From Candidatus Saccharimonadota bacterium (GTDB taxonomy: Bacteria > Patescibacteriota > Saccharimonadia > Saccharimonadales > UBA4665): a stretch of DNA of 32,000 bases. The translations under genes and the position numbers were made by a program. The number at the start of each line of letters is the position of its first letter. Position 1 is the stretch's first letter. The stretch lies in contig CP064992.1 in NCBI GenBank assembly GCA_016699935.1, forward strand, positions 510,001-542,000. The letters run 5' to 3'. A model generated the notes under the pieces. It saw nothing but the letters and a program-made list of their open reading frames with translations. It made no database searches and was not told the origin of the DNA. Positions 4,542 to 32,000 of this stretch are shown here, piece by piece.

Positions 4542-4927
4542 TGATTTTGGTAGACGCAAATCATGTCCTGCGATGGTTCTTGCAAGATGTGCCAGCTCAA
4601 GCGGCTCAGGTAGAGCGTTTACTCCAGTCGTCAGCACCAAATTGCTTAGAGCTGACGTCAGTCACTGTTGCCGAGCTGACGTACGTGTTGCGGACAATGG
4701 CATACGACCATGCGCAGATAGCGGGGGTTATGACTGGGTTGTGCTCGTTTGAATCAGTCAGGCAGTTTTCGCCGGTTGATGCTAGGGCGTTGGAGATTTT
4801 TAGCAACACCGTGCTGGATTACGAAGATTGTTTTCTCATAGCCCAAGCCCTGGTGGAAAACGGTGATATTGCTTCATTCGATAAAAAGCTACTCAAAACG
4901 TTTGAAAAGCTACAACTTGCGGAGTAG
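4541..4927 (+). CDS. vapC: PIN-domain toxin (VapC-like ribonuclease)
   Basis: The 128-aa product shows the acidic quartet spacing: D5 (ILVDAN), E in ..TVAELTYVL, D in LDYEDCFL and D in ASFDKKL. It is translationally coupled to the antitoxin. Confidence 0.8.
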   Translation: MILVDANHVLRWFLQDVPAQAAQVERLLQSSAPNCLELTSVTVAELTYVLRTMAYDHAQIAGVMTGLCSFESVRQFSPVDARALEIFSNTVLDYEDCFLIAQALVENGDIASFDKKLLKTFEKLQLAE

Positions 4928-7111
4928 TTGGTGGGCGGCGGAGGGGTTTGGGAGGCGGTAGTTGGCGAGCGTGCGGCCGCGGCCGACTTTGATGGTGTAC
5001 GAGGTGGGTGGAAGTGCGGCGAACATGTCTTCATCGGTGGTATCATCACCGATAGCCAAGATGAAATCGTGGTCGTGGAGGAGCCATTCCTGCGTAATGT
5101 GGCCTTTGCTGACATCAAGATGGTGGACTTCGAGCGCCATGTTACCATCGACAATCCCTAGGTTTTCCGCTTGCGCAATGGGCTTCAGGAGCTTTTTCAG
5201 AATAGTAAGATGTTTCTGGGCATAAAATGGCGATGCATTACGGTAGTGCCAGGCAATGCTCCATTCTTTGCGCTCGACAAAGGCGCCAGGAGTCTGTGCG
5301 GCGTAGTGTTCAAGTAGTTTTGTAACACTTTTTCCCAGGCAAGTGAATGTTGGTTTGTTTTGCGCCACGTTTGTGGTCGTGCAAGCGAATAAAGCCGCCA
5401 TGTTCTGCTACGAGGGTGACAGGAATAGCTCCAAGCCAGTCCATGAGATTTTTTCTATCCCGACCGCTGATGATTGCGACATGGTTGCGCGGGTCTTTCG
5501 CGAGGCGTTTGAGTGCCGCGAGTGTTGCCTGGGACGGCTTGGCGTCTTCTGGGCGCTTTTTGATTGGTTCGAGTGTGCCGTCATAGTCTAGAAGTATCAG
5601 CCGCTTGCGTGCCTGATGATAGTCAGCGATGAGTTCGGCGGATTGTATTTGTCCTAATCCTCTGGTGAGGCGGATTCTTGGGAGTGGAACGGGTGTTTCG
5701 AGTAGATCAATGAAACCAGATGCCCACTTGTCTATGGTGTTGCCACGGAGTATGCGCTGCATTTTGCGTGTGCGGCGGAGAAAGCTACTTGGGGTCATAT
5801 TTAGCGCATCGGTCAGGCCGGTTACGAGACTGCGCAACTTATATGGGTTAACAAGCACTGCGTCTTTTAGTTCTTCGGCGGCGCCGGCGGTTTCACTGAG
5901 GATAAGGATGCCGTCGCTTTTGGGGTGACTGGCCAAATACTCTTTGGCAACGAGGTTCATGCCATCACGAATGGGGGCGATGAATGCGACATCGGCCCGT
6001 TGATACAAGGCGGCATACTGAGCAAAAGGCAGCGGGGAAAAGATGGTTTCGACGGGCTGCCAGCGACTCGTGCCGAACTGGGAGTTAATCTGTTGAACAA
6101 GCTTTTCGACATCAATCCGGAGTTGCTGGTAGGTTGCAACTTCTGTTCGTGACGGCATTGCCTGCATGACCATGACGACCTTGCTGCGAAGGTTTGGATT
6201 TTCGGCGAGAAGCATGCGGTACGCTTTTAGTCGGCCTAGGAGTCCTTTGGATGGGTCAAGGCGGTCGATGGTAAGAATGACTTTTTTGCCGAAGTATTTC
6301 CACTGCAACTTTTTGTGTTCAATATTTACTTCGAGCGAACGGCTCGCATCGGCAAATTTTCGATAATCTATACCTATCGGCAAGTCGGTCACACGGACGA
6401 CGCGTTCAGGTAGTATGACTTTTCGGGGTGCCACGAGCCCAATCTGTAGTTCTCGACAGCTAGCAAGAAAGTTTTCTACGTACGCAGACGTGTGCATGCC
6501 AATGAGGTTTGCCCCGAGGAGGCCTTTTGTGAGCTCGGTAGCATGCTTTGAGTCAAGAAATATTGCGCTCGAGGGGAAAGGGATGTGGAGGAAGAAACCT
6601 ACGTGGCTTTTGGGGCGGGCGACACGGAGCATTTCGGGTAATAGCATGAGCTGGTAGTCGTGTAGCCAAAGTCGGTCGTTCTCACGGCTGAGTGTCAGTG
6701 TAGTATCGGCGTATAGTTTATTTACCTCTTTGTAGGTGCGCCAATTTGTCGCCGAATCTCCGGTGTCGATTTTCATATGGTGAAATAGTGGCCATAGCAC
6801 ACTGTTGCTGTAGCCATTGTAGAAGCCGTCGAGCTGTTTTTGGGTTAGGAATACGGGGTAGCAGTGATTTTTTTAAGTTCGGCTGTGATGTGTTTGCGCT
6901 CAATGTCACTTAGATCGTCGCTGGCGATACCCGGCCAGCCGATCCAGCGATTTGCGCCATTTGTTGCGTATGAAGACAAACCAGTCGCTAGCCCTCCGGC
7001 CGAAGGGTAGTATTCGAGCTTGCCATCCACCTTCTTTACACTCACTGGCAGCCGGTTTGAAACAATCACAACTCTCGGCATGTGAGTATAGTATCTCACA
7101 ACTTCGGCCAC
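4910..7111 (-). CDS. otsA: bifunctional trehalose-6-phosphate synthase / trehalose-phosphatase (OtsA-OtsB fusion), two frame changes
   Basis: The GT20 N-terminus reads MPRVVIVSNRLPV..GGLATGL and ..LWPLFHH..WLHDYQLMLLP. The HAD phosphatase C-terminus reads LILLDYDGTL..IISGR..AIGDDTTDEDMF. The fragments 6845-7111, 5310-6800 and 4910-5401 join across the T7 run at 6868-6874 and a shift near 5320-5330. Confidence 0.85.
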
Positions 7112-10551: not shown

Positions 10552-10672
10552 ACCTGAGTCTCAAAACCGTCTCCACTTGTACTTGTGTCATTCCCATGAA
10601 GGCGGGAATCCATTTCATATATCTGGATCCCAGCCTTCGCTGGGATGACATCGTGGGGGTTTGAGATTCAGG
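10552..10672. mobile_element. 121-bp MITE-like element, copy 1 (double-hairpin core, imperfect terminal inverted repeats, 7-bp TSD)
   Basis: The terminal repeats are cctgagtctcaaaac and gtttgagattcagg. The core hairpins are gtcattcccatgaaggcgggaatcc (10587-10611) and ggatcccagccttcgctgggatgac (10625-10649). TCTTTAA flanks both sides at 10545-10551 and 10673-10679. The element is about 90% identical to copy 2. Confidence 0.8.
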
Positions 10673-16959: not shown

Positions 16960-17012
16960 ATCCTCTAGAATCAAACATTCTACGTTCTTCCTGCGCTAGT
17001 TTTGAAAAATAG

Positions 17013-17036
17013 ATTCCGGATCAAGTCCGGAATGAC
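17013..17036 (-). repeat. solo member of the GTCATTCC..GGAATC hairpin family
   Basis: Plus-strand gattccggatcaagtccggaatgac reads gtcattccggacttgatccggaatc on the minus strand. It has an 8-bp stem (attccgga/tccggaat) and the same GTCAT/GGAATC flanks as the family. Confidence 0.6.
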
Positions 17037-17158
17037 AAGTGGGGAGAGAATCGAAATTCTAGTTACATTAACTATCGGTGGGTGATAAAGAGCAGGTTTC
17101 CACTAGGCATATCAAACAGTGGATGCTTGAACCTTGTTGCTCACCAAAAGGAGGCTAC

Positions 17159-19307
17159 ATGAGCCAAATAACTACTAAAACAATTAACCCTTATGGCAAA
17201 GACCTTGTGGTTGTCGAAACAGAGTTTTGCGGTCGCAAACTGACACTAGAAGTAAACCGCGTTGGATTCCGTACTACGGCCAGTGTACTGGCACGCTACG
17301 GCGACACTGTGGTGCTTGGTACTGCCATGATGGGCAAACCAATCAAGGTATGGACTATTTCCCGCTTAGCATCGACTACGAAGAAAGTTTTATGCTGCAG
17401 GTAAGATCAGTGGCAGCCGTTTTATCAAGCGCGAAGGTCGTCCTAGCGACGATGCCATCCTTATCGGCCGACTTATCGACCGACCAATTCGTCCGCTTTT
17501 CCCAAAGGGTTATCGAAACGAAGTGCAGGGTGTTGCTAGTGTCCTCAGTATGGATCCGGCATTTCGCCCAGATATGATTGCCATGATCGCCATGAGCACA
17601 GCTCTAATGCTCACGGGTGCACCGTTTGACGGTCCAGTTGCCGGCGTCCGAGTCGGCATAAACGAAAAAGGCGATTACCAAGCATTCATGACTGCCGAAG
17701 AGCTAAATGCCAGCAAACTTGATCTAGTCGTCGCCGCTCGTGAAGGTGGTGTTATGATGGTCGAAGCCGGCGCCAATGAAGCTACCGAAGAAGAAGTCGT
17801 GGCAGCCTTGAAGTTTGCCGAGGAAGCAATTAAGCCCGCATTGGCAGCGCAAACCGAACTTGTCAAAAGGTCGGGGTGGAAGCCACCGAATATGAATTGG
17901 TGCTCCCAGACGAAAAATCCAAAAAGCCGTCGATGCTTGGGTTGAGGGAAAACTAGGTGAAGACCTACGAGCACCTTACCCAGAGCGAAACGAATTAGTC
18001 GTGACACTTCGCCAGCAAATGCACGATGCCTTTGCCGAAGAAATTGGGGCTGACGATTATGGCGTGTTACGTAGTGAATACGATGAGGCTTTTCAGATGG
18101 CGTTACACAAAGATGTGCGTAGAGGAATCGTCGAAGACGGCGTGCGACCAGATGGCCGCAAGCTCGACGAAATTCGTACGTTGAGCTCAGAAGTTGGTCT
18201 GCTGCCTCGTGCTCATGGCTCGAGCCTATTTACCAGGGGTATGACGCAGGGAATGAATATAGTTACCCTGGCGCCACTCAGTTATTCTCAAATGGTGGAC
18301 ACCATGGAGCGCAACGAAGAACGCCGCTACATGCACCACTACAATGCTCCCGGCTACACTGTCGGTGAAGTACGTCGACTGGGTTCACCTGGACGCCGCG
18401 AAATTGGCCATGGCTACTTGGCAGAGCGGGCACTGAGTGCCGTGCTGCCAGATGAGTCAGTCTTCCCCTACGCCATTCGCTCGGTTACCGAGATTATGAG
18501 TCAAAACGGATCAACTAGTATGGCAGCGACATGTTCTCGAGTTGTCTAGCTCTAATGGATGCTGGCGTACCACTCAAAGCGCCCGTTTCGGGTATTGCCA
18601 TGGGACTTATGGTGGACGGCGACAAGACTTACATATTGAGTGATATCGCTGACGCCGAAGATTTTGCCGGTGATATGGACTTCAAAGTAACCGGTACCAC
18701 CGTAGGCATCACAGCCTTGCAGATGGATATGAAAGTACACGGTTTGCCAGTAACAGTGCTAGCGGAAGCTTTAGCCCAAGGCAAAGACGGCCGAGCACAC
18801 ATATTGCGCCATATGCTAGAAACAATGCCAGAACCACGGGCAGAACTAAGCCCGTATGCCCCTCGGGTTGAAAGCATACAGATTAACCCTGACAAGATTC
18901 GCGAAATTATCGGTAAGGGTGGCGAGACTATTCAGAAAATTACCGGTGAAACTGGCACAGAAATCGACATCAAAGATGATGGTACGGTGATGATCGCTAG
19001 CCCAGATGGAGATAGCATACAGCGCGCCAAAGACTGGATTCTTTCTATCGTGGAAGATCCAGAAGTGGGCAAAATATATGTCGATAAGCCAGTAGTTTCT
19101 GTCCTGGACTTCGGTGCGTTCGTGCAGATTATGCCCGGCAAAGACGGTCTGGTGCATGTCAGCGAGATGAGCGAGGAACGGGTCAATAAACCGAGTGACG
19201 TTGTCAAAGAAGGCGACCTGGTCACCGTAAAACTCGTCGCCATAGACGACCGCGGTCGCCTGCAACTCAGCATGAAAGCCGCGCAACGGGAACTTGAAAA
19301 GAAATAG
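17159..19307 (+). CDS. pnp: polynucleotide phosphorylase (PNPase), at least four frame changes
   Basis: An AAAGGAGG Shine-Dalgarno precedes the start. Five ORF fragments read continuously: MSQITTKTINPYG.., ..MDYFPLSIDYEE.., ..FIKREGRPSDDAILIGRLIDRPIRPLFP.., ..DGRKLDEIR..HGSSLFTRG.., ..MDAGVPLKAPVSGIAMGL... KH (IIGKGGETIQKI) and S1 (GKIYVDKPVVSVLDFGAFVQI) domains follow. Confidence 0.95.
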
Positions 19308-19312
19308 AAGCA

Positions 19313-19786
19313 ATTTAGCAGGTAACAGAAAGACATTGAGCAGAAATTTGGCATATGGCAGGTAGCAGAGATTCCGCTAGCGACGACAGTCAAAAGAAAC
19401 GAGCACTTCTCGAACGTAGGATGTTGGTTTTGCGGCCGATGTGATACGAAAGCTCGAGAAAGCACCCCGTATACCTAATCGCTTAGTAGATCAACTTACG
19501 GGTTCGTCATCGAGTATTGGCGCAAATTACGCCGAAGCATGTAATGGCGTGTCTCGTATGGATTTTCGCAACAAAATCTATATAGCTAAAAAGGAAGCAG
19601 CGGAAACCCGTTTTTGGTTGGATTTGTGTATGGAAGTACAGCCAAAGGATGATGAATGGGTGCGTTTACGTCAAGAAGCCCATGAACTGCTCATAATATT
19701 ACAGGCAATAGTTAACGCATAAAAGCGGGTCTGCGAAATGAAAAATGCCAAATTTCTGCTAAATGCTCAATGTCTTTCTGCTAAAT
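19313..19786. mobile_element. inverted-repeat-bounded cassette carrying the four-helix-bundle gene
   Basis: The left arm atttagcag..aaagacattgagc..agaaatttggcat (19313-19354) is mirrored by the right arm atgccaaatttctgc..gctcaatgtcttt..ctgctaaat (19745-19786). The cassette fills the pnp-udg gap almost exactly, with 5 nt and 12 nt to spare. Confidence 0.6.
19355..19722 (+). CDS. four-helix-bundle protein (23S rRNA intervening-sequence protein family), one frame change near 19415-19440
   Basis: The family signature is ..QLTGSSSSIGANYAEACNGVSRMDFRNKIYIAKKEAAETRFWLDL... The N-terminal ..KKRALLER / ..GFAADVIRKL lies in an adjacent frame starting from the ATG at 19355. Confidence 0.75.
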
Positions 19787-24417: not shown

Positions 24418-24538
24418 CCTGAGTCTCAAAACAGTTTCCACTTGTACTTGTGTCATTCCCGCGAAGGCGGGAATCCATTTCATATATCTGGATCCCAGCC
24501 TTCGCTGGGATGACAACCTGGGGTTTTGAGACCCAGAT
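24418..24538. mobile_element. 121-bp MITE-like element, copy 2 (7-bp TSD ATAGGCA)
   Basis: The terminal repeats are cctgagtctcaaaac and gttttgagacccag(at). The hairpins are gtcattcccgcgaaggcgggaatcc (24452-24476) and ggatcccagccttcgctgggatgac (24490-24514). ATAGGCA lies at 24411-24417 and again at 24539-24545. Confidence 0.8.
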
Positions 24539-24585: not shown

Positions 24586-24873
24586 ATGCCAAAAATAAAC
24601 AAAGTTCGTCCTTCTGAAGAATGGCTTGCTGTCGAAGCACATAACGATAAAGATTTGTTATACCTCTTAACCTTGAAAGAAGATGTGATTGAGGAAAGAC
24701 TTGCATATAGGCGAGGCGATAAGCCAGGCGACGATGAAGGTTATGACGTCGCAGTTAGCGGGTTAAATAATCTCATCGCAAGCGCCAGGCAGAACTTAAT
24801 ATCGATCCAAACATTGGTCCACTTGATTACATCAAGAACAAGGAATAGACTACCGCAATCAATAATTGTATAA
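24586..24873 (+). CDS. small hypothetical protein (95 aa)
   Basis: The product is MPKINKVRPSEEWLAVEAHNDKDLLYLLTLKEDVIEERLAYRRGDKPGDDEGYD... The listed ORF start at 24526 lies inside the MITE and upstream of the promoter, so I prefer the ATG at 24586. I recognise no family. Confidence 0.45.
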   Translation: MPKINKVRPSEEWLAVEAHNDKDLLYLLTLKEDVIEERLAYRRGDKPGDDEGYDVAVSGLNNLIASARQNLISIQTLVHLITSRTRNRLPQSIIV

Positions 24874-24884
24874 TCAAAAGCATT

Positions 24885-27141
24885 ATGGCGAAAAAGAAAA
24901 GCAAGCTAAAAAGAAAGTGGCAGCACCAGTCGAGCGAGAACCGTCGCCCGTTGTGGGCTATGTGCTTGCGGTCGTGTTCATACTGACGGCTATCTTCATA
25001 TTTTTAGGCGGTTTTCACGCCGGTGGTACGCTACCCAAAGGCCTTTTTGGGGCTATGAGCTGGCTGTTTGGCTGGGGCGCGTGGCTCGTGCCGATTAGTC
25101 TGCTGTACTGGGGGTATTACAAATTTACTAATGACGATCACCGTGTGCCGCGTGGACGTGTTTTCAGTATGTATATGTTCCTAGTGCTTATGTCGGCATG
25201 GTTTTTCACCGCATTCGCACGTTCCAGCGATGAGCCAGGGGTAGCAACACAAATCGTAGGCGGCAGCGGCGGTGAAGTTGGCGGTGCGGTAGGTGACGCG
25301 GTACTGTCGGCACTCGATAAAGTACCGGCGAGTCTGTTGTTTTTCACCTTTGGTCTGCTGACATTCTTCTTTGCCTTTGGCATATCACCAAAGGTTATAC
25401 TGAGCCTTGGCAATCTCTTCCACCGCCGTAACAGTGAGCCAGAAGGTGAACTAGCAGCATTGAAAGCCAAAGCGGCTGAGAGTGGCTTCCAGCTGAATGA
25501 AGGTGTACCGGTCGTGAAGCACAGTGAAGGTTCCCTTGCGAAAGAACAAGTCCATCACTCCAATTTCCGGAATACTGCACAAAAATTGAGCACAAACGAA
25601 ACTCACGAAGCGCTGACGACTGCGAGCGACCCAGATTGGAAACTGCCAGGCGTCGACTTACTCGATCAGCGCCAAGATAAGGCCGATGCAGGCAATGTTG
25701 AGGGCAATGCCCGGATTATTAAAGAAACTTTTGCCAACTTTGCTATAGATGTGGAGATGGAGGGGGCAAATATCGGTCCACGCGTCACACAGTATACACT
25801 GCGGCCACCGACTGGAGTGAAACTTACGAAAATAACGGCACTCGAAAACAACCTCGCTCTGGACCTCGCGGCGACGACCATTCGTATGGAAGCGCCTATA
25901 CCGGGAAAGAGGGCGGTTGGTATAGAAGTGCCAAACGTAAAGGGTGCTACTGTGCGATTAAGCTCTATTTTCCAGTCGCGCGAGTGGGCAGAGTCGGAGG
26001 GAGCGCTCACATTTGCTATTGGTAAGGACATCGTCGGACATAGCGTAGTTGCGGATCTGGCACGTATGCCGCACATCCTAGTTGCTGGTCAGACCGGCTC
26101 TGGTAAATCTGTCATGATAAACGACATTTTAACAAGCTTGCTGTATCGCAACAGTCCAAGTGATCTCAAACTTATCCTTGTCGACCCCAAACAGGTGGAG
26201 CTTACGCCGTACAATGATCTTCCGCACTTGCTGACACCCGTGATTCACGAGCCAGAAAAGTGCATTAGTGCGCTCAAATGGGCAGTGGCTGAAATGGAGC
26301 GACGTCTGCGCACTATGGCAGAGGTGAGTAAGCGCAATATTGAGGAGTACAATCTCATAAAGCCCGAGGAAAAAATGCCGTACGTCGTTATTGTCATAGA
26401 TGAGCTCAGTGACCTCATGATGATGGCTGCTCGTGATGTCGAGGCGCTTATCGTTCGTGTGGCGCAAAAAGCTCGAGCAGCCGGAATACATCTCATTCTT
26501 GCGACGCAGCGACCGAGTGTGAACGTCATCACGGGGCTCATTAAAGCCAACGTACCGGCTCGGATTGCCTTTACCACTGTGAGCCAAGTAGATAGCCGTA
26601 CCATCATAGACCAAATGGGCGCAGAGAAACTGCTGGGGCGAGGAGATATGCTGTACCAAACCTCTGAAATGCCCGCACCAAAGCGTGTTCAAGCTGCGTT
26701 TGTGAGCGACGGCGAAACGGTGAAGGTGAATGATTTTATACGCGAGCAGCGGGCACAGACTACAACGACGAAGTCGTCAGCCAACCAGTACAAATTGGTA
26801 AGGGTGGCGTAGTCGTGACCGATACATCGCATGACAATGCCGACGAAGACATGTTCCACGATGCCGTACGCGTGGTCATAGAAAGTCGCAAGGCCTCCAC
26901 GTCACTACTGCAGCGGCGGCTACGGATCGGTTATGGGCGTGCAGCGCGGCTCATGGAGGAAATGGAAGAGCAGGGTATTATAGGCGCAGCTGACGGCAGT
27001 CGACCCGCGATGTATTGGTTAGTTCACTCGACCAAGTCTTTGGTGGCGGTGGGGTTCAGGGGCGATGACGCAGGAGTCGATCTTGACGAATATGGCGTTC
27101 CTACCGAACCAAATGATAGTAGCGAATACCTTGCTCGCTAA
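24885..27141 (+). CDS. ftsK: DNA translocase FtsK, at least two or three frame changes
   Basis: N-terminal transmembrane helices are present. The motor domain has Walker A (VAGQTGSGKS), Walker B (VVIVIDELSDLMM) and ..ILATQRPSVNVITG... The gamma winged helix reads ASTSLLQRRLRIGYGRAARLMEEMEEQGIIG and lies in the 26815-27141 fragment. The likely start is ATG 24885 (MAKKKSKLKRK) in an adjacent frame, and the track ORF starts at TTG 24866. Confidence 0.9.
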
Positions 27142-29674: not shown

Positions 29675-30241
29675 ATGGGATTAAGCATAACGAATTTGAA
29701 AAAAGGGGTGGTGTTTCAGCTGGACGGTGAACCGTTTCGGGTGGTGGAATATAACCAAAAGGTGATGGGGCGCGGCGGTAGTATTGTGAATGTACGGGTG
29801 CGCAGTTTGCTAGATGGTAAAGTGCTAGAAAAGACTTTTAAAGGGAATGAAACGCTCGAAACGGCCGATGTGACGAACCAGACGGTGCAGTATCTGTACA
29901 GCGACGGTAGCGTGTTTCACTTTATGAATCAGGAAAGTTTTGAGCAATTTGAGGTGAGCGATGAGCTGATGGGCGACGGCGCCGGCTACCTAAAAGAAGG
30001 TGACATGGTCAGCCTGCAATTTTTCAACGGTGTACCCATAAACGTTGAGCTGCCAAAAAACGTGCCACTCCTGGTGACGTATACCGAAAATGCAGTAAAA
30101 GGCGATACCAGTAGCTCAATTACAAAAGAGGCAACTCTAGAAACGGGCATTACTGTGCGTGTGCCGGCGTTTATTAAGCAAGGTGATGTCATATCTGTAG
30201 ACACAAGCAACGGCGCCTACCGTGAAAGAGTCAAAGAATAG
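29675..30241 (+). CDS. efp: elongation factor P (Arg at the modified-loop position)
   Basis: The 188-aa product has the typical three-domain length. LDGEPFRVVEYNQKVMGRGGSIVNVRVRSLLDG aligns residue for residue with E. coli [33 protein letters not shown]. This places Arg where E. coli has Lys34. Confidence 0.9.
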   Translation: MGLSITNLKKGVVFQLDGEPFRVVEYNQKVMGRGGSIVNVRVRSLLDGKVLEKTFKGNETLETADVTNQTVQYLYSDGSVFHFMNQESFEQFEVSDELMGDGAGYLKEGDMVSLQFFNGVPINVELPKNVPLLVTYTENAVKGDTSSSITKEATLETGITVRVPAFIKQGDVISVDTSNGAYRERVKE

Positions 30242-30244
30242 CCA

Positions 30245-30274
30245 CTGTCATTCCCGCGCAGGCGGGAATCCATC
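30245..30274 (+). repeat. left 30-bp inverted repeat / hairpin flanking the GIY-YIG gene
   Basis: The sequence ctgtcattcccgcgcaggcgggaatccatc is the exact reverse complement of 30561-30590. It has an internal 8-bp stem attcccgc/gcgggaat. Confidence 0.95.
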
Positions 30275-30276
30275 TT

Positions 30277-30615
30277 ATGAATACATACTACGTCTACATA
30301 TTAGCAAGTAAGCCAAACGGAACGCTCTATATTGGCGTGACGAATAATCTCGAGCGTCGGCTGTATGAGCACAAGAATACTCTAGCTGATGGTTTTACGA
30401 AAAAATATGGCGTAAAACAACTTGTTTATTATGAAGAATATAATAGCGTAGAGGCGGCCATTATTCGGGAAAAACAACTCAAGAAATGGGAGCGTGCGTG
30501 GAAGGTTCGACTTATAGAAGAGCGAAACTCGTATTGGAACGATTTGAGTTTAGAGTGGGGGATGGATTCCCGCCTGCGCGGGAATGACAGCGAAACTGTC
30601 AGGATTCAGTCATGA
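30277..30615 (+). CDS. GIY-YIG nuclease family protein (small stand-alone URI-domain type)
   Basis: The motifs YYVYILAS..GTLYIGVTNNLERRLYEH.. give GIY/YIG, then Arg, then Glu. ..IIREKQLKKW.. follows. The last 17 codons or so (..MDSRLRGNDSE..) are translated from the right hairpin repeat. The stop overlaps the tlyA start. Confidence 0.85.
   Translation: MNTYYVYILASKPNGTLYIGVTNNLERRLYEHKNTLADGFTKKYGVKQLVYYEEYNSVEAAIIREKQLKKWERAWKVRLIEERNSYWNDLSLEWGMDSRLRGNDSETVRIQS
30561..30590 (-). repeat. right 30-bp inverted repeat / hairpin flanking the GIY-YIG gene
   Basis: The sequence is gatggattcccgcctgcgcgggaatgacag, a perfect inverted copy of 30245-30274. Confidence 0.95.
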
Positions 30616-31387
30616 AAGAACGTTTGGATATAACTGTAGCGAAACGGGGGTTGGTGGCCAGCAGGAGCCAGGCAGAAAGCTATGTGCGACTCGGAAAGGT
30701 ACTGGTGAATGGTAAGCCCGCGGTGAAAAGTGGACAATTGGTATCTGAGGCCGACAAAATTGAGGTGAAAACAGACGTGCAGTATGTGAGCCGGGCGGCA
30801 CTAAAACTTGAGAGTGCCGATGCGACATTTCACATTGACTGGCAGGGAAAAACTGTTCTGGATGTAGGGAGTAGTACGGGTGGGTTTACGCAGTACACGC
30901 TCGCTCACGGGGCGAAAAAGGTAATCGCCGTAGATGTCGGTACCGAGCAGTTACACCCGAGTCTGCGCAGTGATCCGCGGATTGAACTGCATGAAAAAAC
31001 TGACATACGTGATGTTTGGCTTCGCCAAACAGAACCAAGTTACGAGTCATGACTCAAGAAAGAAAGCAGTTTTCATAGAAGGAAAAATAGATATTGTTGT
31101 CGGTGACGTCAGTTTTATATCACTCCGAGAAATCTTACCTCATGTGGCTAAACTTATGTCACGTGGTTCTCTGCTTATCGCTATGGTTAAGCCGCAGTTT
31201 GAAGCAGGGCATAGTAGACTCAAGCACAAGGGGTCATCAAAAATGACCGGATGCGCCGCGATATATTGCAGGACTTCGAAGCCTGGGCGCGCGCGTTTTT
31301 CATCGTCGTCGACAAAAAGACTCTGAAGTGGCTGGCAGCAAGGGCAATGTAGAGCGCTTCTACCTCCTCCGCAAACTCCAACACTGA
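30612..31387 (+). CDS. tlyA: TlyA-family rRNA 2'-O-methyltransferase (S4 domain + FtsJ-like MTase), at least three frame changes
   Basis: The S4-like N-terminus reads RLDITVAKRGLVASRSQAESYVRLGKVLVNGK. The SAM motif is VLDVGSSTGGFTQ. ..DVSFISLREILPHVAKL..AMVKPQFEAG.. follows, and the tail ..GSKGNVERFYLLRKLQH ends at TGA 31385-31387. All of this is spread over three frames. Confidence 0.85.
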
Positions 31388-31766: not shown

Positions 31767-32000
31767 GAGCGAACAAGCGAACCGGTGCGTAAGCGCCGGC
31801 TTTAGGAGAGGGAGGAGAGTCGTTTCGGATTCATTCCGAAACAACGAGGAGGGACGGTAGTCCCTCCTGAGCGTACTAAAGCGTACCGGTGCGTAAGCGC
31901 CGGCTTTAGGAGGAGGAGGAGAGTCGTTTCGGATTCATTCCGAAACAACGAGGAGGGACGGTAGTCCCTCCTGAATATGGACGGTAGTCCCTCCTGAATA
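31767..32000. repeat. tandem repeat of a three-hairpin unit, 104-nt period, 2.2 copies or more, running off the window
   Basis: Unit starts lie at 31781 and 31885, and a partial third copy lies at 31979-31997. Each unit contains ccggtgc-gtaa-gcgccgg (GNRA-type loop), gtttcgg-attcatt-ccgaaac and aggaggga-cggtag-tccctcct. The copies differ by 1-2 nt. Confidence 0.85.

Follow-up and report, generated by a model that had tools for sequence, protein, structure and literature searches.

Why a small nuclease gene should lie between two exact, inverted copies of a hairpin, and whether its product acts on that hairpin, is the question raised by a locus of a Candidatus Saccharimonadota bacterium (contig CP064992.1 of assembly GCA_016699935.1), in which an open reading frame (ORF) for a 112-aa GIY-YIG protein occupies the gap between efp and tlyA. 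We analysed a stretch of 32,000 nucleotides that contains this locus (positions 510,001 to 542,000 of the contig, forward strand; hereafter the window, whose own numbering is used throughout). A sequence-only reading of this DNA had proposed that the hairpin may have its cognate nuclease in this protein, in an arrangement analogous to repetitive extragenic palindromic (REP) elements and their REP-associated tyrosine transposases (RAYT), and was not aware of any formal description of such a system. In this report, we conclude that the locus is very probably a Saccharibacteria member of the Ssn/SRM system, known in Neisseria as SsnA/NTS. The system is already known: the Ssn family was published in 2025 by Chenal et al. 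(PMC11893778), together with the same comparison with insertion sequences and REP/RAYT, so a formal description does exist. What is new here is the occurrence in Saccharibacteria, the evidence for empty sites and relocation, and the presence of hairpin doublets inside a miniature inverted-repeat transposable element (MITE).

The definition of Ssn as a family of single-domain GIY-YIG nucleases goes back to Chenal et al. (Nat Commun 2025; PMC11893778). The 28-nt Neisseria Transformation Sequence (NTS) is CGTCATTCCCGCGMAVGCGGGAATCYRG, and hairpins of its degenerate form, the Ssn-related motif (SRM), are co-located across phyla with a small GIY-YIG gene, ssnA (CDD cd10448); an SRM lies near 71% of ssnA homologues and on both sides of 42%. 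In purified form, SsnA binds the hairpin in single-stranded DNA alone, with the cut a few nucleotides to its 5' side; the enzyme is inactive on double-stranded DNA, RNA and the complementary strand, and does not interact with RNA of identical sequence. Cleavage is abolished by the substitutions Y6A, Y17A and E64A; the C after the palindrome is most crucial to binding, the three upstream nucleotides are the main determinant of cleavage, and in Neisseria a stem whose sequence is altered with its structure kept no longer supports activity. Binding and cutting of the hairpin strand exclusively in single-stranded form, with the cut 5' of the hairpin, have been demonstrated for four homologues, from N. 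meningitidis (Nm), N. elongata, N. wadsworthii and Wolbachia. The only biological role demonstrated is the cutting of incoming single-stranded DNA in natural transformation, and N. meningitidis SsnA lowers transformation by SRM-bearing DNA. In their Discussion the authors liken 'NTS-ssnA-NTS' to an insertion sequence, to IS200/IS605 and to REP/RAYT, so the idea of a mobile element has already been voiced, as a hypothesis; Patescibacteria are unmentioned in the main text (PMC11893778). Natural competence of Saccharibacteria has been reported elsewhere (PMC10633639).

An ssn gene between two copies of its own site

The layout described by the sequence-only reading was borne out throughout. The two arms (Table 1) are 30 nt each, 100% complementary and 286 nt apart, the left one reading CTGTCATTCCCGCGCAGGCGGGAATCCATC, and each folds as single-stranded DNA into a hairpin with an 8-bp stem (ATTCCCGC/GCGGGAAT) and a 4-nt loop at -8.9 kcal/mol. 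The efp stop codon (30241) lies 4 nt upstream of the left arm, and the ssn ATG follows 2 nt past the end of that arm. The gene product consists of a core of ~95 aa and a 17-aa tail, the last 17 codons crossing the right arm (…MDSRLRGNDSETVRIQS), so that the C-terminus is indeed translated from the hairpin, which encodes residues 96-104, MDSRLRGND; homologues with a stop codon before the arm are 95 aa long. The ssn stop and the tlyA start (30612) overlap in an ATGA, and tlyA itself is interrupted in this assembly by at least three frame changes. No promoter-like or terminator-like sites were called at either arm, and no direct repeat that could represent a target-site duplication adjoins the arms of the cassette, of which the 32-kb window holds a single copy. 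The cassette is placed in the efp-tlyA operon, has neither promoter nor terminator of its own and is translationally coupled to tlyA, and within it ssn has a copy of its own site on either side, both copies facing inward. Because these sites face inward on both sides, the predicted nicks would fall just outside the cassette and on opposite strands.

Features of the Ssn family in the window protein

The window protein passes the threshold of the GIY-YIG superfamily, with a Pfam GIY-YIG (PF01541) match over residues 4-76 (E 1.3e-17, 64.3 bits versus a cut-off of 22.6); its second Pfam match is an overlapping T5orf172 only, and there is no accessory domain and no DNA-binding extension, as expected of a single-domain enzyme of <150 aa. 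It is identical to an NCBI protein from 'Candidatus Saccharibacteria bacterium' named 'GIY-YIG nuclease family protein', and its homologues number in the thousands. Many of these carry N- or C-terminal peptides translated from a hairpin (VIPAHAGIQ, SFPRKRES, IPAFAGMT, DSRLRGND, IPDQVGND), which is independent proof that the juxtaposition of gene and hairpin is general. A search of the PDB found no Ssn structure and only distant UPF0213, UvrC and SLX1 relatives, among them the UPF0213 structures 1zg2 (E 4.7e-5) and 1ywl (E 0.013).

For the comparison with SsnA, the N. gonorrhoeae orthologue was used in place of Nm SsnA (CAX49033.1). A tblastn search against PLSDB found it in two N. gonorrhoeae chromosomes, at one place each (60% identity, E 2e-26); the ORF encodes 94 aa with Y6, Y17 and E64, as for Nm SsnA (PMC11893778), and an NTS lies 4 nt beyond its stop codon. 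By BLASTP, the window protein shares 51 of 85 residues (60%) with gonococcal SsnA, without gaps and over 85 of its 94 residues, at E 3e-37, which lies within the published limits of the family (E < 1e-10 and at least 75% coverage to Neisseria SsnA; PMC11893778) as applied here against the gonococcal orthologue. Y7, Y18 and E65 align to Y6, Y17 and E64 of SsnA, the residues essential for cleavage. The sequence-only reading had held that loss of the catalytic Arg or Glu would speak against its proposal; in an alignment of 27 homologues, Y7, G15, Y18, G20, H32, E65 and N84 do not vary at all, and R28 is almost invariant. As to the hairpin, the window arm agrees with the NTS consensus at 26 of 28 positions, the mismatches being the first and last base only, both arms retain the GTC upstream of the palindrome and the C downstream, and an SRM is present within 500 bp of ssn on both its 5' and 3' sides. 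Thus, every feature of Ssn membership that was tested is present, and it is the fit of the arms to the SRM pattern, their closeness to the NTS, the 60% identity of the protein and the retention of its catalytic residues that identify the system. The two gonococcal chromosomes are complete chromosomes filed in PLSDB as plasmids; one of them, L101 (NZ_CP119140.1, 2.17 Mb), has 12 annotated features in total in its record, and neither chromosome has a feature under the ssnA match.

Occurrence of the cassette among Saccharibacteria

A TlyA-anchored scan of species-representative genomes yielded 80 Saccharibacteria loci, among which we compared the efp-tlyA junction, a check that the sequence-only reading had proposed. 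In ~30 of the 80, efp and tlyA are 2-53 bp apart, and these junctions are empty sites; in L027, for example, only one T separates the TAA that ends efp from the tlyA ATG. A homologue of ssn lies within 6 kb in only seven of the 80 loci, in one of which (L016) it is decayed. The cassette is an accessory insertion, without counterpart in most relatives. The Ssn orthologues of L001 (83% identity) and L007 (69%) lie directly upstream of an intact tlyA (258-259 aa) with a 4-nt overlap of the ATGA type, and their arms equal the 28-nt core of the window or nearly so (one L001 arm has two differences), while the non-coding DNA around the arms is not conserved. The 75% homologue of L006 has the same arms and is located between the RNase III gene and rpsP.

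All ten intact ssn genes of the Saccharibacteria loci are enclosed by inward-facing hairpins of one design, in which (T/C)GTCAT leads into a stem of 7-9 bp closed by a loop of 4-5 nt, and a C comes directly after the second stem strand; the flanking copies take the form TGTCAT-stem-loop-stem-(A)TCC. The stems are lineage-specific, with compensatory changes that keep them complementary (for example ATTCCCGC/GCGGGAAT, ATCCTGAA/TTCAGGAT, ATGCCGGG/CCCGGCAT and ATCCCCAG/CTGGGGAT), the complementarity beside ssn being a qualitative point since the hairpins were gathered by requiring a perfect stem. Hairpin number also follows the presence of the gene in local neighbourhoods: not counting those at the gene, ssn-bearing loci have ~18 times the SRM density of the other loci (10 in 149 kb versus 3 in 801 kb; binomial P 1.7e-6, or 2.6e-4 excluding the window), where one of the 10, L018 4614-4636, is the right flanking hairpin of its gene and leaves nine, the P values having been computed with 10. 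Flanking hairpins at ten of ten genes, hairpin-derived tails and the density of SRMs in ssn-bearing loci link the enzyme to the hairpin, and together with the homology to SsnA and the likeness of the hairpin to the NTS they point to the GIY-YIG protein as the probable cognate nuclease, as the sequence-only reading had proposed.

Some efp-tlyA junctions hold other small genes. L014 (5575-5992, with a 26-nt flanking inverted repeat) and L020 (~5585-5962), which are among the closest relatives of the window by elongation factor P (EF-P), have in this gap a PF05635 gene, the 23S rRNA intervening-sequence protein or four-helix-bundle family; it is a second kind of hairpin-enclosed small gene that uses the junction. 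The window carries a PF05635 gene elsewhere, at 19441-19722 (+) within the region 19323-19783, bracketed by long imperfect inverted repeats (19323-19369 and 19730-19783). That such genes fill most of the efp-tlyA gaps of ~430-500 bp was considered and rejected, as this is true only of L014 and L020.

A proposed mechanism and the points against it

By homology to the enzymes tested, the ~95-aa Ssn would bind its own hairpin only on single-stranded DNA, would recognise the conserved GTC on the 5' side, the stem itself and the C that comes next, and would nick the hairpin strand a few nucleotides 5' of the hairpin. Its effect would be to trim or restrict single-stranded DNA that bears SRMs, which may be transforming DNA or intermediates of replication and recombination. 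Trimming of the SRM strand may in turn modulate recombination, as shown in Neisseria, and the host group is naturally competent.

Several points weigh against this interpretation. The window has three stem types (CCCGCG, CCCAGC and CCGGA), whereas the Neisseria enzyme is specific for its stem sequence, so one enzyme may not act on all seven hairpins described below; it is uncertain that a single enzyme would serve all three types. The activity of the window protein on the window hairpins is a prediction, and a role in transformation would be an extrapolation from one genus. The gonococcal locus differs in that its downstream NTS is on the coding strand, which does not make a strictly inverted pair hugging the gene. 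The frameshift-rich assembly could affect fine details, although L001 and L007 share the architecture, which speaks against such an effect. Finally, the hairpin census covers 32 kb and neighbourhoods of ~12 kb.

The hairpin family in the window

The published SRM pattern matches the window five times, against 0.14 expected from 200 dinucleotide shuffles; the matches include both arms (30246-30273, +, and 30562-30589, -) and three other sites. A 25-mer search allowing up to 3 mismatches gave four matches in the window and none in the shuffles, and a scan anchored on GTCAT, with a perfect stem required after it, returned seven true members, at 10587+, 10627-, 17013-, 24452+, 24492-, 30247+ and 30566-, in keeping with the seven or eight counted by the sequence-only reading. 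All seven count as intergenic, and the right-arm copy overlaps the 3' end of the ssn ORF. The solo hairpin seen earlier at 17013-17036 was recovered, and its stem type is also read into the Ssn tails (IPDQVGND) of other Patescibacteria.

Four members lie in two elements that the sequence-only reading had described as 121 bp long, flanked by target-site duplications and built on one hairpin core. The elements and their shared hairpin stand; their size is 120 bp, and each carries two inward-facing hairpins, 11-13 nt apart, instead of one. The match of 24 of 25 nt claimed for both holds for the copy at 24452, while the copy at 10587 matches at 22 of 25 and has a broken stem. Flanking direct repeats of 8 bp are present, matching at seven of eight positions (TCTTTAAA/TCTTTAAG and GATAGGCA/TATAGGCA). 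The two copies are ~92% identical over 120 bp, as counted from the alignment, their terminal inverted repeats measure 14-15 nt, and copy B as a whole forms one long hairpin (-30.7 kcal/mol, z = -6.9). Short, non-coding, bounded by terminal inverted repeats and a flanking duplication and present in multiple copies, the elements have the properties of a MITE, and the vehicle of the window doublets looks like an ordinary one.

A scan of metagenomes for the exact MITE core found no match, and a degenerate scan found one related contig, from soil Saccharibacteria and also with the order efp-ssn-tlyA, in which the terminal repeats of the window MITE enclose two SRMs with different stems. The terminal repeat alone has one match in L014, without an SRM doublet. 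Gene-less inward doublets without the MITE terminal repeats are found at L006 9487/9609, at L051 4481/4546 and in the IMG/VR contig L098; since they recur in these three places and in the window MITEs, the SRM doublet is a recurrent, REPIN-like arrangement, after the REP doublets that form hairpins. The dispersed hairpins, that is the two MITE doublets and the solo copy, are likely to be further Ssn sites where they have the CCCGCG stem, and it is uncertain that the variant stems are.

Table 1. Features of the ssn cassette and of the hairpin family, in window coordinates
Feature	Coordinates	Strand	Details
Left arm, NTS-type SRM hairpin	30245..30274	+	SRM core TGTCATTCCCGCGCAGGCGGGAATCCAT at 30246-30273
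Right arm, NTS-type SRM hairpin, inward-facing	30561..30590	-	within the 3' end of the ssn ORF
ssn, single-domain GIY-YIG nuclease, 112 aa	30277..30615	+	Pfam PF01541
efp, upstream neighbour	29675..30241	+	Pfam EFP_N, EFP, Elong-fact-P_C
tlyA-like rRNA methyltransferase, downstream neighbour	30612..31378	+	Pfam S4 + FtsJ
MITE copy A, 120 bp	10553..10672	+	terminal inverted repeats CCTGAGTCTCAAAAC / GGTTTGAGATTCAGG
SRM pair of MITE copy A	10586-10613, 10623-10650	+, -	inward-facing; decayed stem in the + copy
MITE copy B, 120 bp	24418..24537	+	terminal repeats same as copy A
SRM pair of MITE copy B	24451-24478, 24488-24515	+, -	inward-facing; both intact
Solo SRM variant TGTCATTCCGGACTTGATCCGGAATCTAT	17010..17038 (hairpin 17013-17036)	-	8-bp stem, 5-nt loop, intergenic

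The doublets inside a MITE bring in the explanation that the hairpins are ordinary REP-like or MITE repeats of an unrelated transposase (a Y1 RAYT or a DDE enzyme), between which a homing or repair nuclease of the GIY-YIG type landed by chance. We consider such a coincidence most improbable. Beyond the terminal repeats and duplications of the two doublet-bearing elements, it can draw on the fact that GIY-YIG domains are common in homing endonucleases and on a weak NCBIfam match to a group I intron endonuclease (32 bits, below the cut-off of 56); however, every homologue examined is flanked by the hairpins, whose stems change along with the protein lineage, Ssn lacks a DNA-binding extension, no homologue occurs among 50,697 curated phage genomes, and neither a Y1 (Y1_Tnp) nor a DDE transposase domain was matched among 30 further ORFs of the window. 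In addition, homologues of the enzyme are demonstrably specific for exactly this hairpin (PMC11893778).

The position of the arms next to two start codons raises another explanation, in which the hairpins work mainly in cis, as structures in RNA or DNA that control translation or transcription of ssn and tlyA or stabilise mRNA, and the link to the nuclease is secondary. The left hairpin always ends 7-20 nt upstream of the ssn start, where the single purine-rich run is taken up by its 3' stem GGGAAT, the tlyA start comes 22 nt after the right hairpin, and the hairpin is part of FtrB, a Rfam model of a Francisella small RNA, to which the match is sub-threshold. We nevertheless judge this explanation quite unlikely. 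Neither arm is followed by a U-tract and no terminator-like site was called, no Rfam family reaches threshold, the dispersed copies are not consistently beside start codons, and the hairpin is conserved across phyla including the unpaired flanks that matter in protein binding; moreover, SsnA showed no interaction with an RNA of this sequence (PMC11893778). Two narrower identities were rejected as well: a terminator or attenuator role of the arms, as there is no T-run, and a CRISPR array or known regulatory RNA, as no Rfam family reached its gathering threshold and the sub-threshold FtrB and CRISPR-DR28 matches reflect the shared hairpin only. The FtrB (Francisella sRNA B, RF02748) matches, at 30234-30302 (+) and 30545-30613 (-), are explained by the FtrB model consensus, which contains the NTS hairpin GUCAUUCCCGCGuAGGCGGGAAUC; part of the annotated FtrB small RNA may be an SRM repeat.

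Stable inheritance or mobility

The strongest rival explanation treats the SRM-ssn-SRM cassette as an autonomous mobile element, with the gene-less inward doublets as its non-autonomous derivatives, which would amount either to a REPIN/RAYT-like partnership with a GIY-YIG enzyme or to a new class of single-strand mobile element; nicking by Ssn outside each arm would then promote excision, copying or integration. We hold this to be unlikely, although the distribution of the cassette gives it some substance. The cassette is found at four or more Saccharibacteria positions: upstream of tlyA (window, L001, L007, L015, L053, L081 and L093), upstream of efp (L018, L028 and, decayed, L016), between the RNase III gene and rpsP (L006), and also in the IMG/VR contig L098. 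L015 and L028 have 82%-identical Ssn proteins and the same stems, with the cassette before tlyA in L015 and before efp in L028, while L007 and L028 have EF-P proteins that are 94% identical, Ssn proteins that are 66% identical, and different stems and positions; these comparisons indicate that the arms travel with the gene. The cassette is patchily distributed on an EF-P tree, which as the tree of a single short protein is of low resolution, and the gene-less doublets recur, as described above.

A filled/empty pair upstream of efp (L028 4770-5174 versus L023 5139-5174, with flanks ~86% identical) shows the cassette as a discrete block. In the empty allele of L023 no nucleotide separates the stop codon upstream from the efp ATG; the filled allele of L028 has a block of ~385 bp, made up of hairpin-ssn-hairpin and ~17 and ~22 nt outside the hairpins. 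The 22 nt past the right hairpin of L028 contain a new Shine-Dalgarno-like GGAGAG for efp. In L016 (4486-4720) the decayed ssn retains 49% identity over residues 7-69 with its GIY and YIG motifs broken, and is still preceded by an SRM hairpin, translated VIPAKAGI.

Against an autonomous element stands, in the first place, the structure of the cassette. Its ends lack a target-site duplication, the filled/empty indel is not precisely bounded by the hairpins, given the extra nucleotides outside them, and copy number is one in the window and one place in the 2.17-Mb gonococcal chromosome; the target-site duplication and the several copies per genome that mark an insertion sequence were thus not found, copies having been counted in the window and the gonococcal chromosome. 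Position and ATGA coupling to tlyA are kept down to 69% protein identity, which looks like stable inheritance. The predicted nicks on opposite strands would not fit peel-and-paste excision or any known scheme of single-strand transposition. The window doublets have boundaries of their own, namely terminal repeats and 8-bp duplications, which points to a conventional transposase, and the MITE ends lie 21-33 nt away from the expected Ssn cut positions. Moreover, patchiness at one junction could equally arise from transformation with homologous recombination in the efp and tlyA flanks, or from repeated loss; transformation with flank recombination would explain the recurrent occupation of the junction as well as transposition does. 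Our data show that the cassette has been repeatedly gained, lost or replaced. The earlier suggestion that the hairpins are mobilised or maintained by the enzyme found no direct support: the cassette lacks a target-site duplication, occurs once in the window and keeps its synteny across diverged relatives.

The exact 28-nt arm also occurs in six contigs classed as viral (L095, L096, L097, L098, L099 and L100), of which L096 and L098 are IMG/VR contigs. L098 has a full hairpin-ssn-hairpin cassette and several doublets, and L096 has eight SRM-like hairpins, all on one strand.

Comparison with known systems

The locus is closest to SsnA/NTS, which it matches in having a single-domain GIY-YIG protein of ~94 aa, in the catalytic Tyr/Tyr/Glu of that protein, in the hairpin, in the presence of its own sites on both sides of the gene and in the further intergenic copies nearby. 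Unlike SsnA/NTS, its host is a Saccharibacterium (Patescibacteria), its arms form a perfect inward-facing 30-nt pair tight on an ORF that crosses one of them, and the cassette lies within the efp-tlyA operon, to which it is coupled in translation. A few copies per 32 kb here contrast with hundreds per genome in pathogenic Neisseria, some of the window copies are doublets inside a MITE, and the window member is known from sequence alone. Similar to the window MITE, the Neisseria Correia elements and neisserial intergenic mosaic elements (NIMEs, carrying dRS3) are short intergenic elements, terminal-repeat-bounded or mosaic, with an ATTCCC-N8-GGGAAT hairpin; the 120-bp element differs from them in its unrelated terminal repeats (CCTGAGTCTCAAAAC) and its 8-bp duplication.

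The analogy to REP/RAYT drawn by the sequence-only reading held in part. As there, a single-copy nuclease gene lies between inverted copies of a short dispersed palindromic repeat, the repeats often form inverted doublets that fold into a long hairpin, and the hairpin is recognised in single-stranded DNA, for Ssn presumably so by homology. The fold is GIY-YIG, not the HUH/Y1 fold that defines RAYTs, which agrees with the unrelated catalytic fold that had been proposed; what lacks direct support is that the enzyme mobilises or maintains the hairpins, and that Ssn multiplies its repeats is a hypothesis only. We know of no GIY-YIG enzyme that performs strand transfer through a covalent intermediate, a further difference from REP/RAYT. 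The TnpA enzymes of IS200/IS605 likewise recognise subterminal hairpins in single-stranded DNA and cleave a few nucleotides away, but there both ends are cut on the same strand, whereas here the sites are on opposite strands, the enzyme family is different and the cassette is single-copy. With I-TevI-type homing endonucleases and UPF0213/YhbQ, Ssn shares the GIY-YIG catalytic core; unlike the former it has no DNA-binding domain, intron, intein or phage context, and UPF0213 proteins are only distant relatives. An I-TevI-type homing endonuclease was accordingly rejected as the identity of the gene, which encodes a single domain, has no match in the phage collection and lies between efp and tlyA.

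Other observations in the window

The reading frames of several housekeeping genes, namely fpg, otsA/otsB, pnp, ftsK and tlyA (1160-2070, 4910-6800, 17523-19307, 24866-27141 and 30612-31378), are broken up by frameshifts or stops, which suggests an indel-rich, possibly long-read-only assembly, not real pseudogenes. At 31775-32000 a 104-bp unit is repeated 1.9 times with 96% identity and has hairpins of its own, GTTTCGGATTCATTCCGAAAC and GGAGGGACGGTAGTCCCTCC; beyond it, at the end of the window, is a 23-bp repeat, and neither is related to the SRM family.

Significance

The near-identity of the hairpin in Neisseria and Saccharibacteria shows a strong constraint by the enzyme on its site, and each lineage-specific pair of stem and enzyme is a candidate specificity for tools that cut single-stranded DNA. 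Empty junctions, relocated cassettes with co-travelling arms, a decayed copy and MITE doublets all bear on the question of whether such cassettes are domesticated or mobile. Our analysis extends the Ssn/SRM system into Saccharibacteria, ultrasmall and naturally competent epibionts with genomes of ~1 Mb; in genomes of this size a retained accessory gene is notable, and control of incoming single-stranded DNA is plausibly important there.

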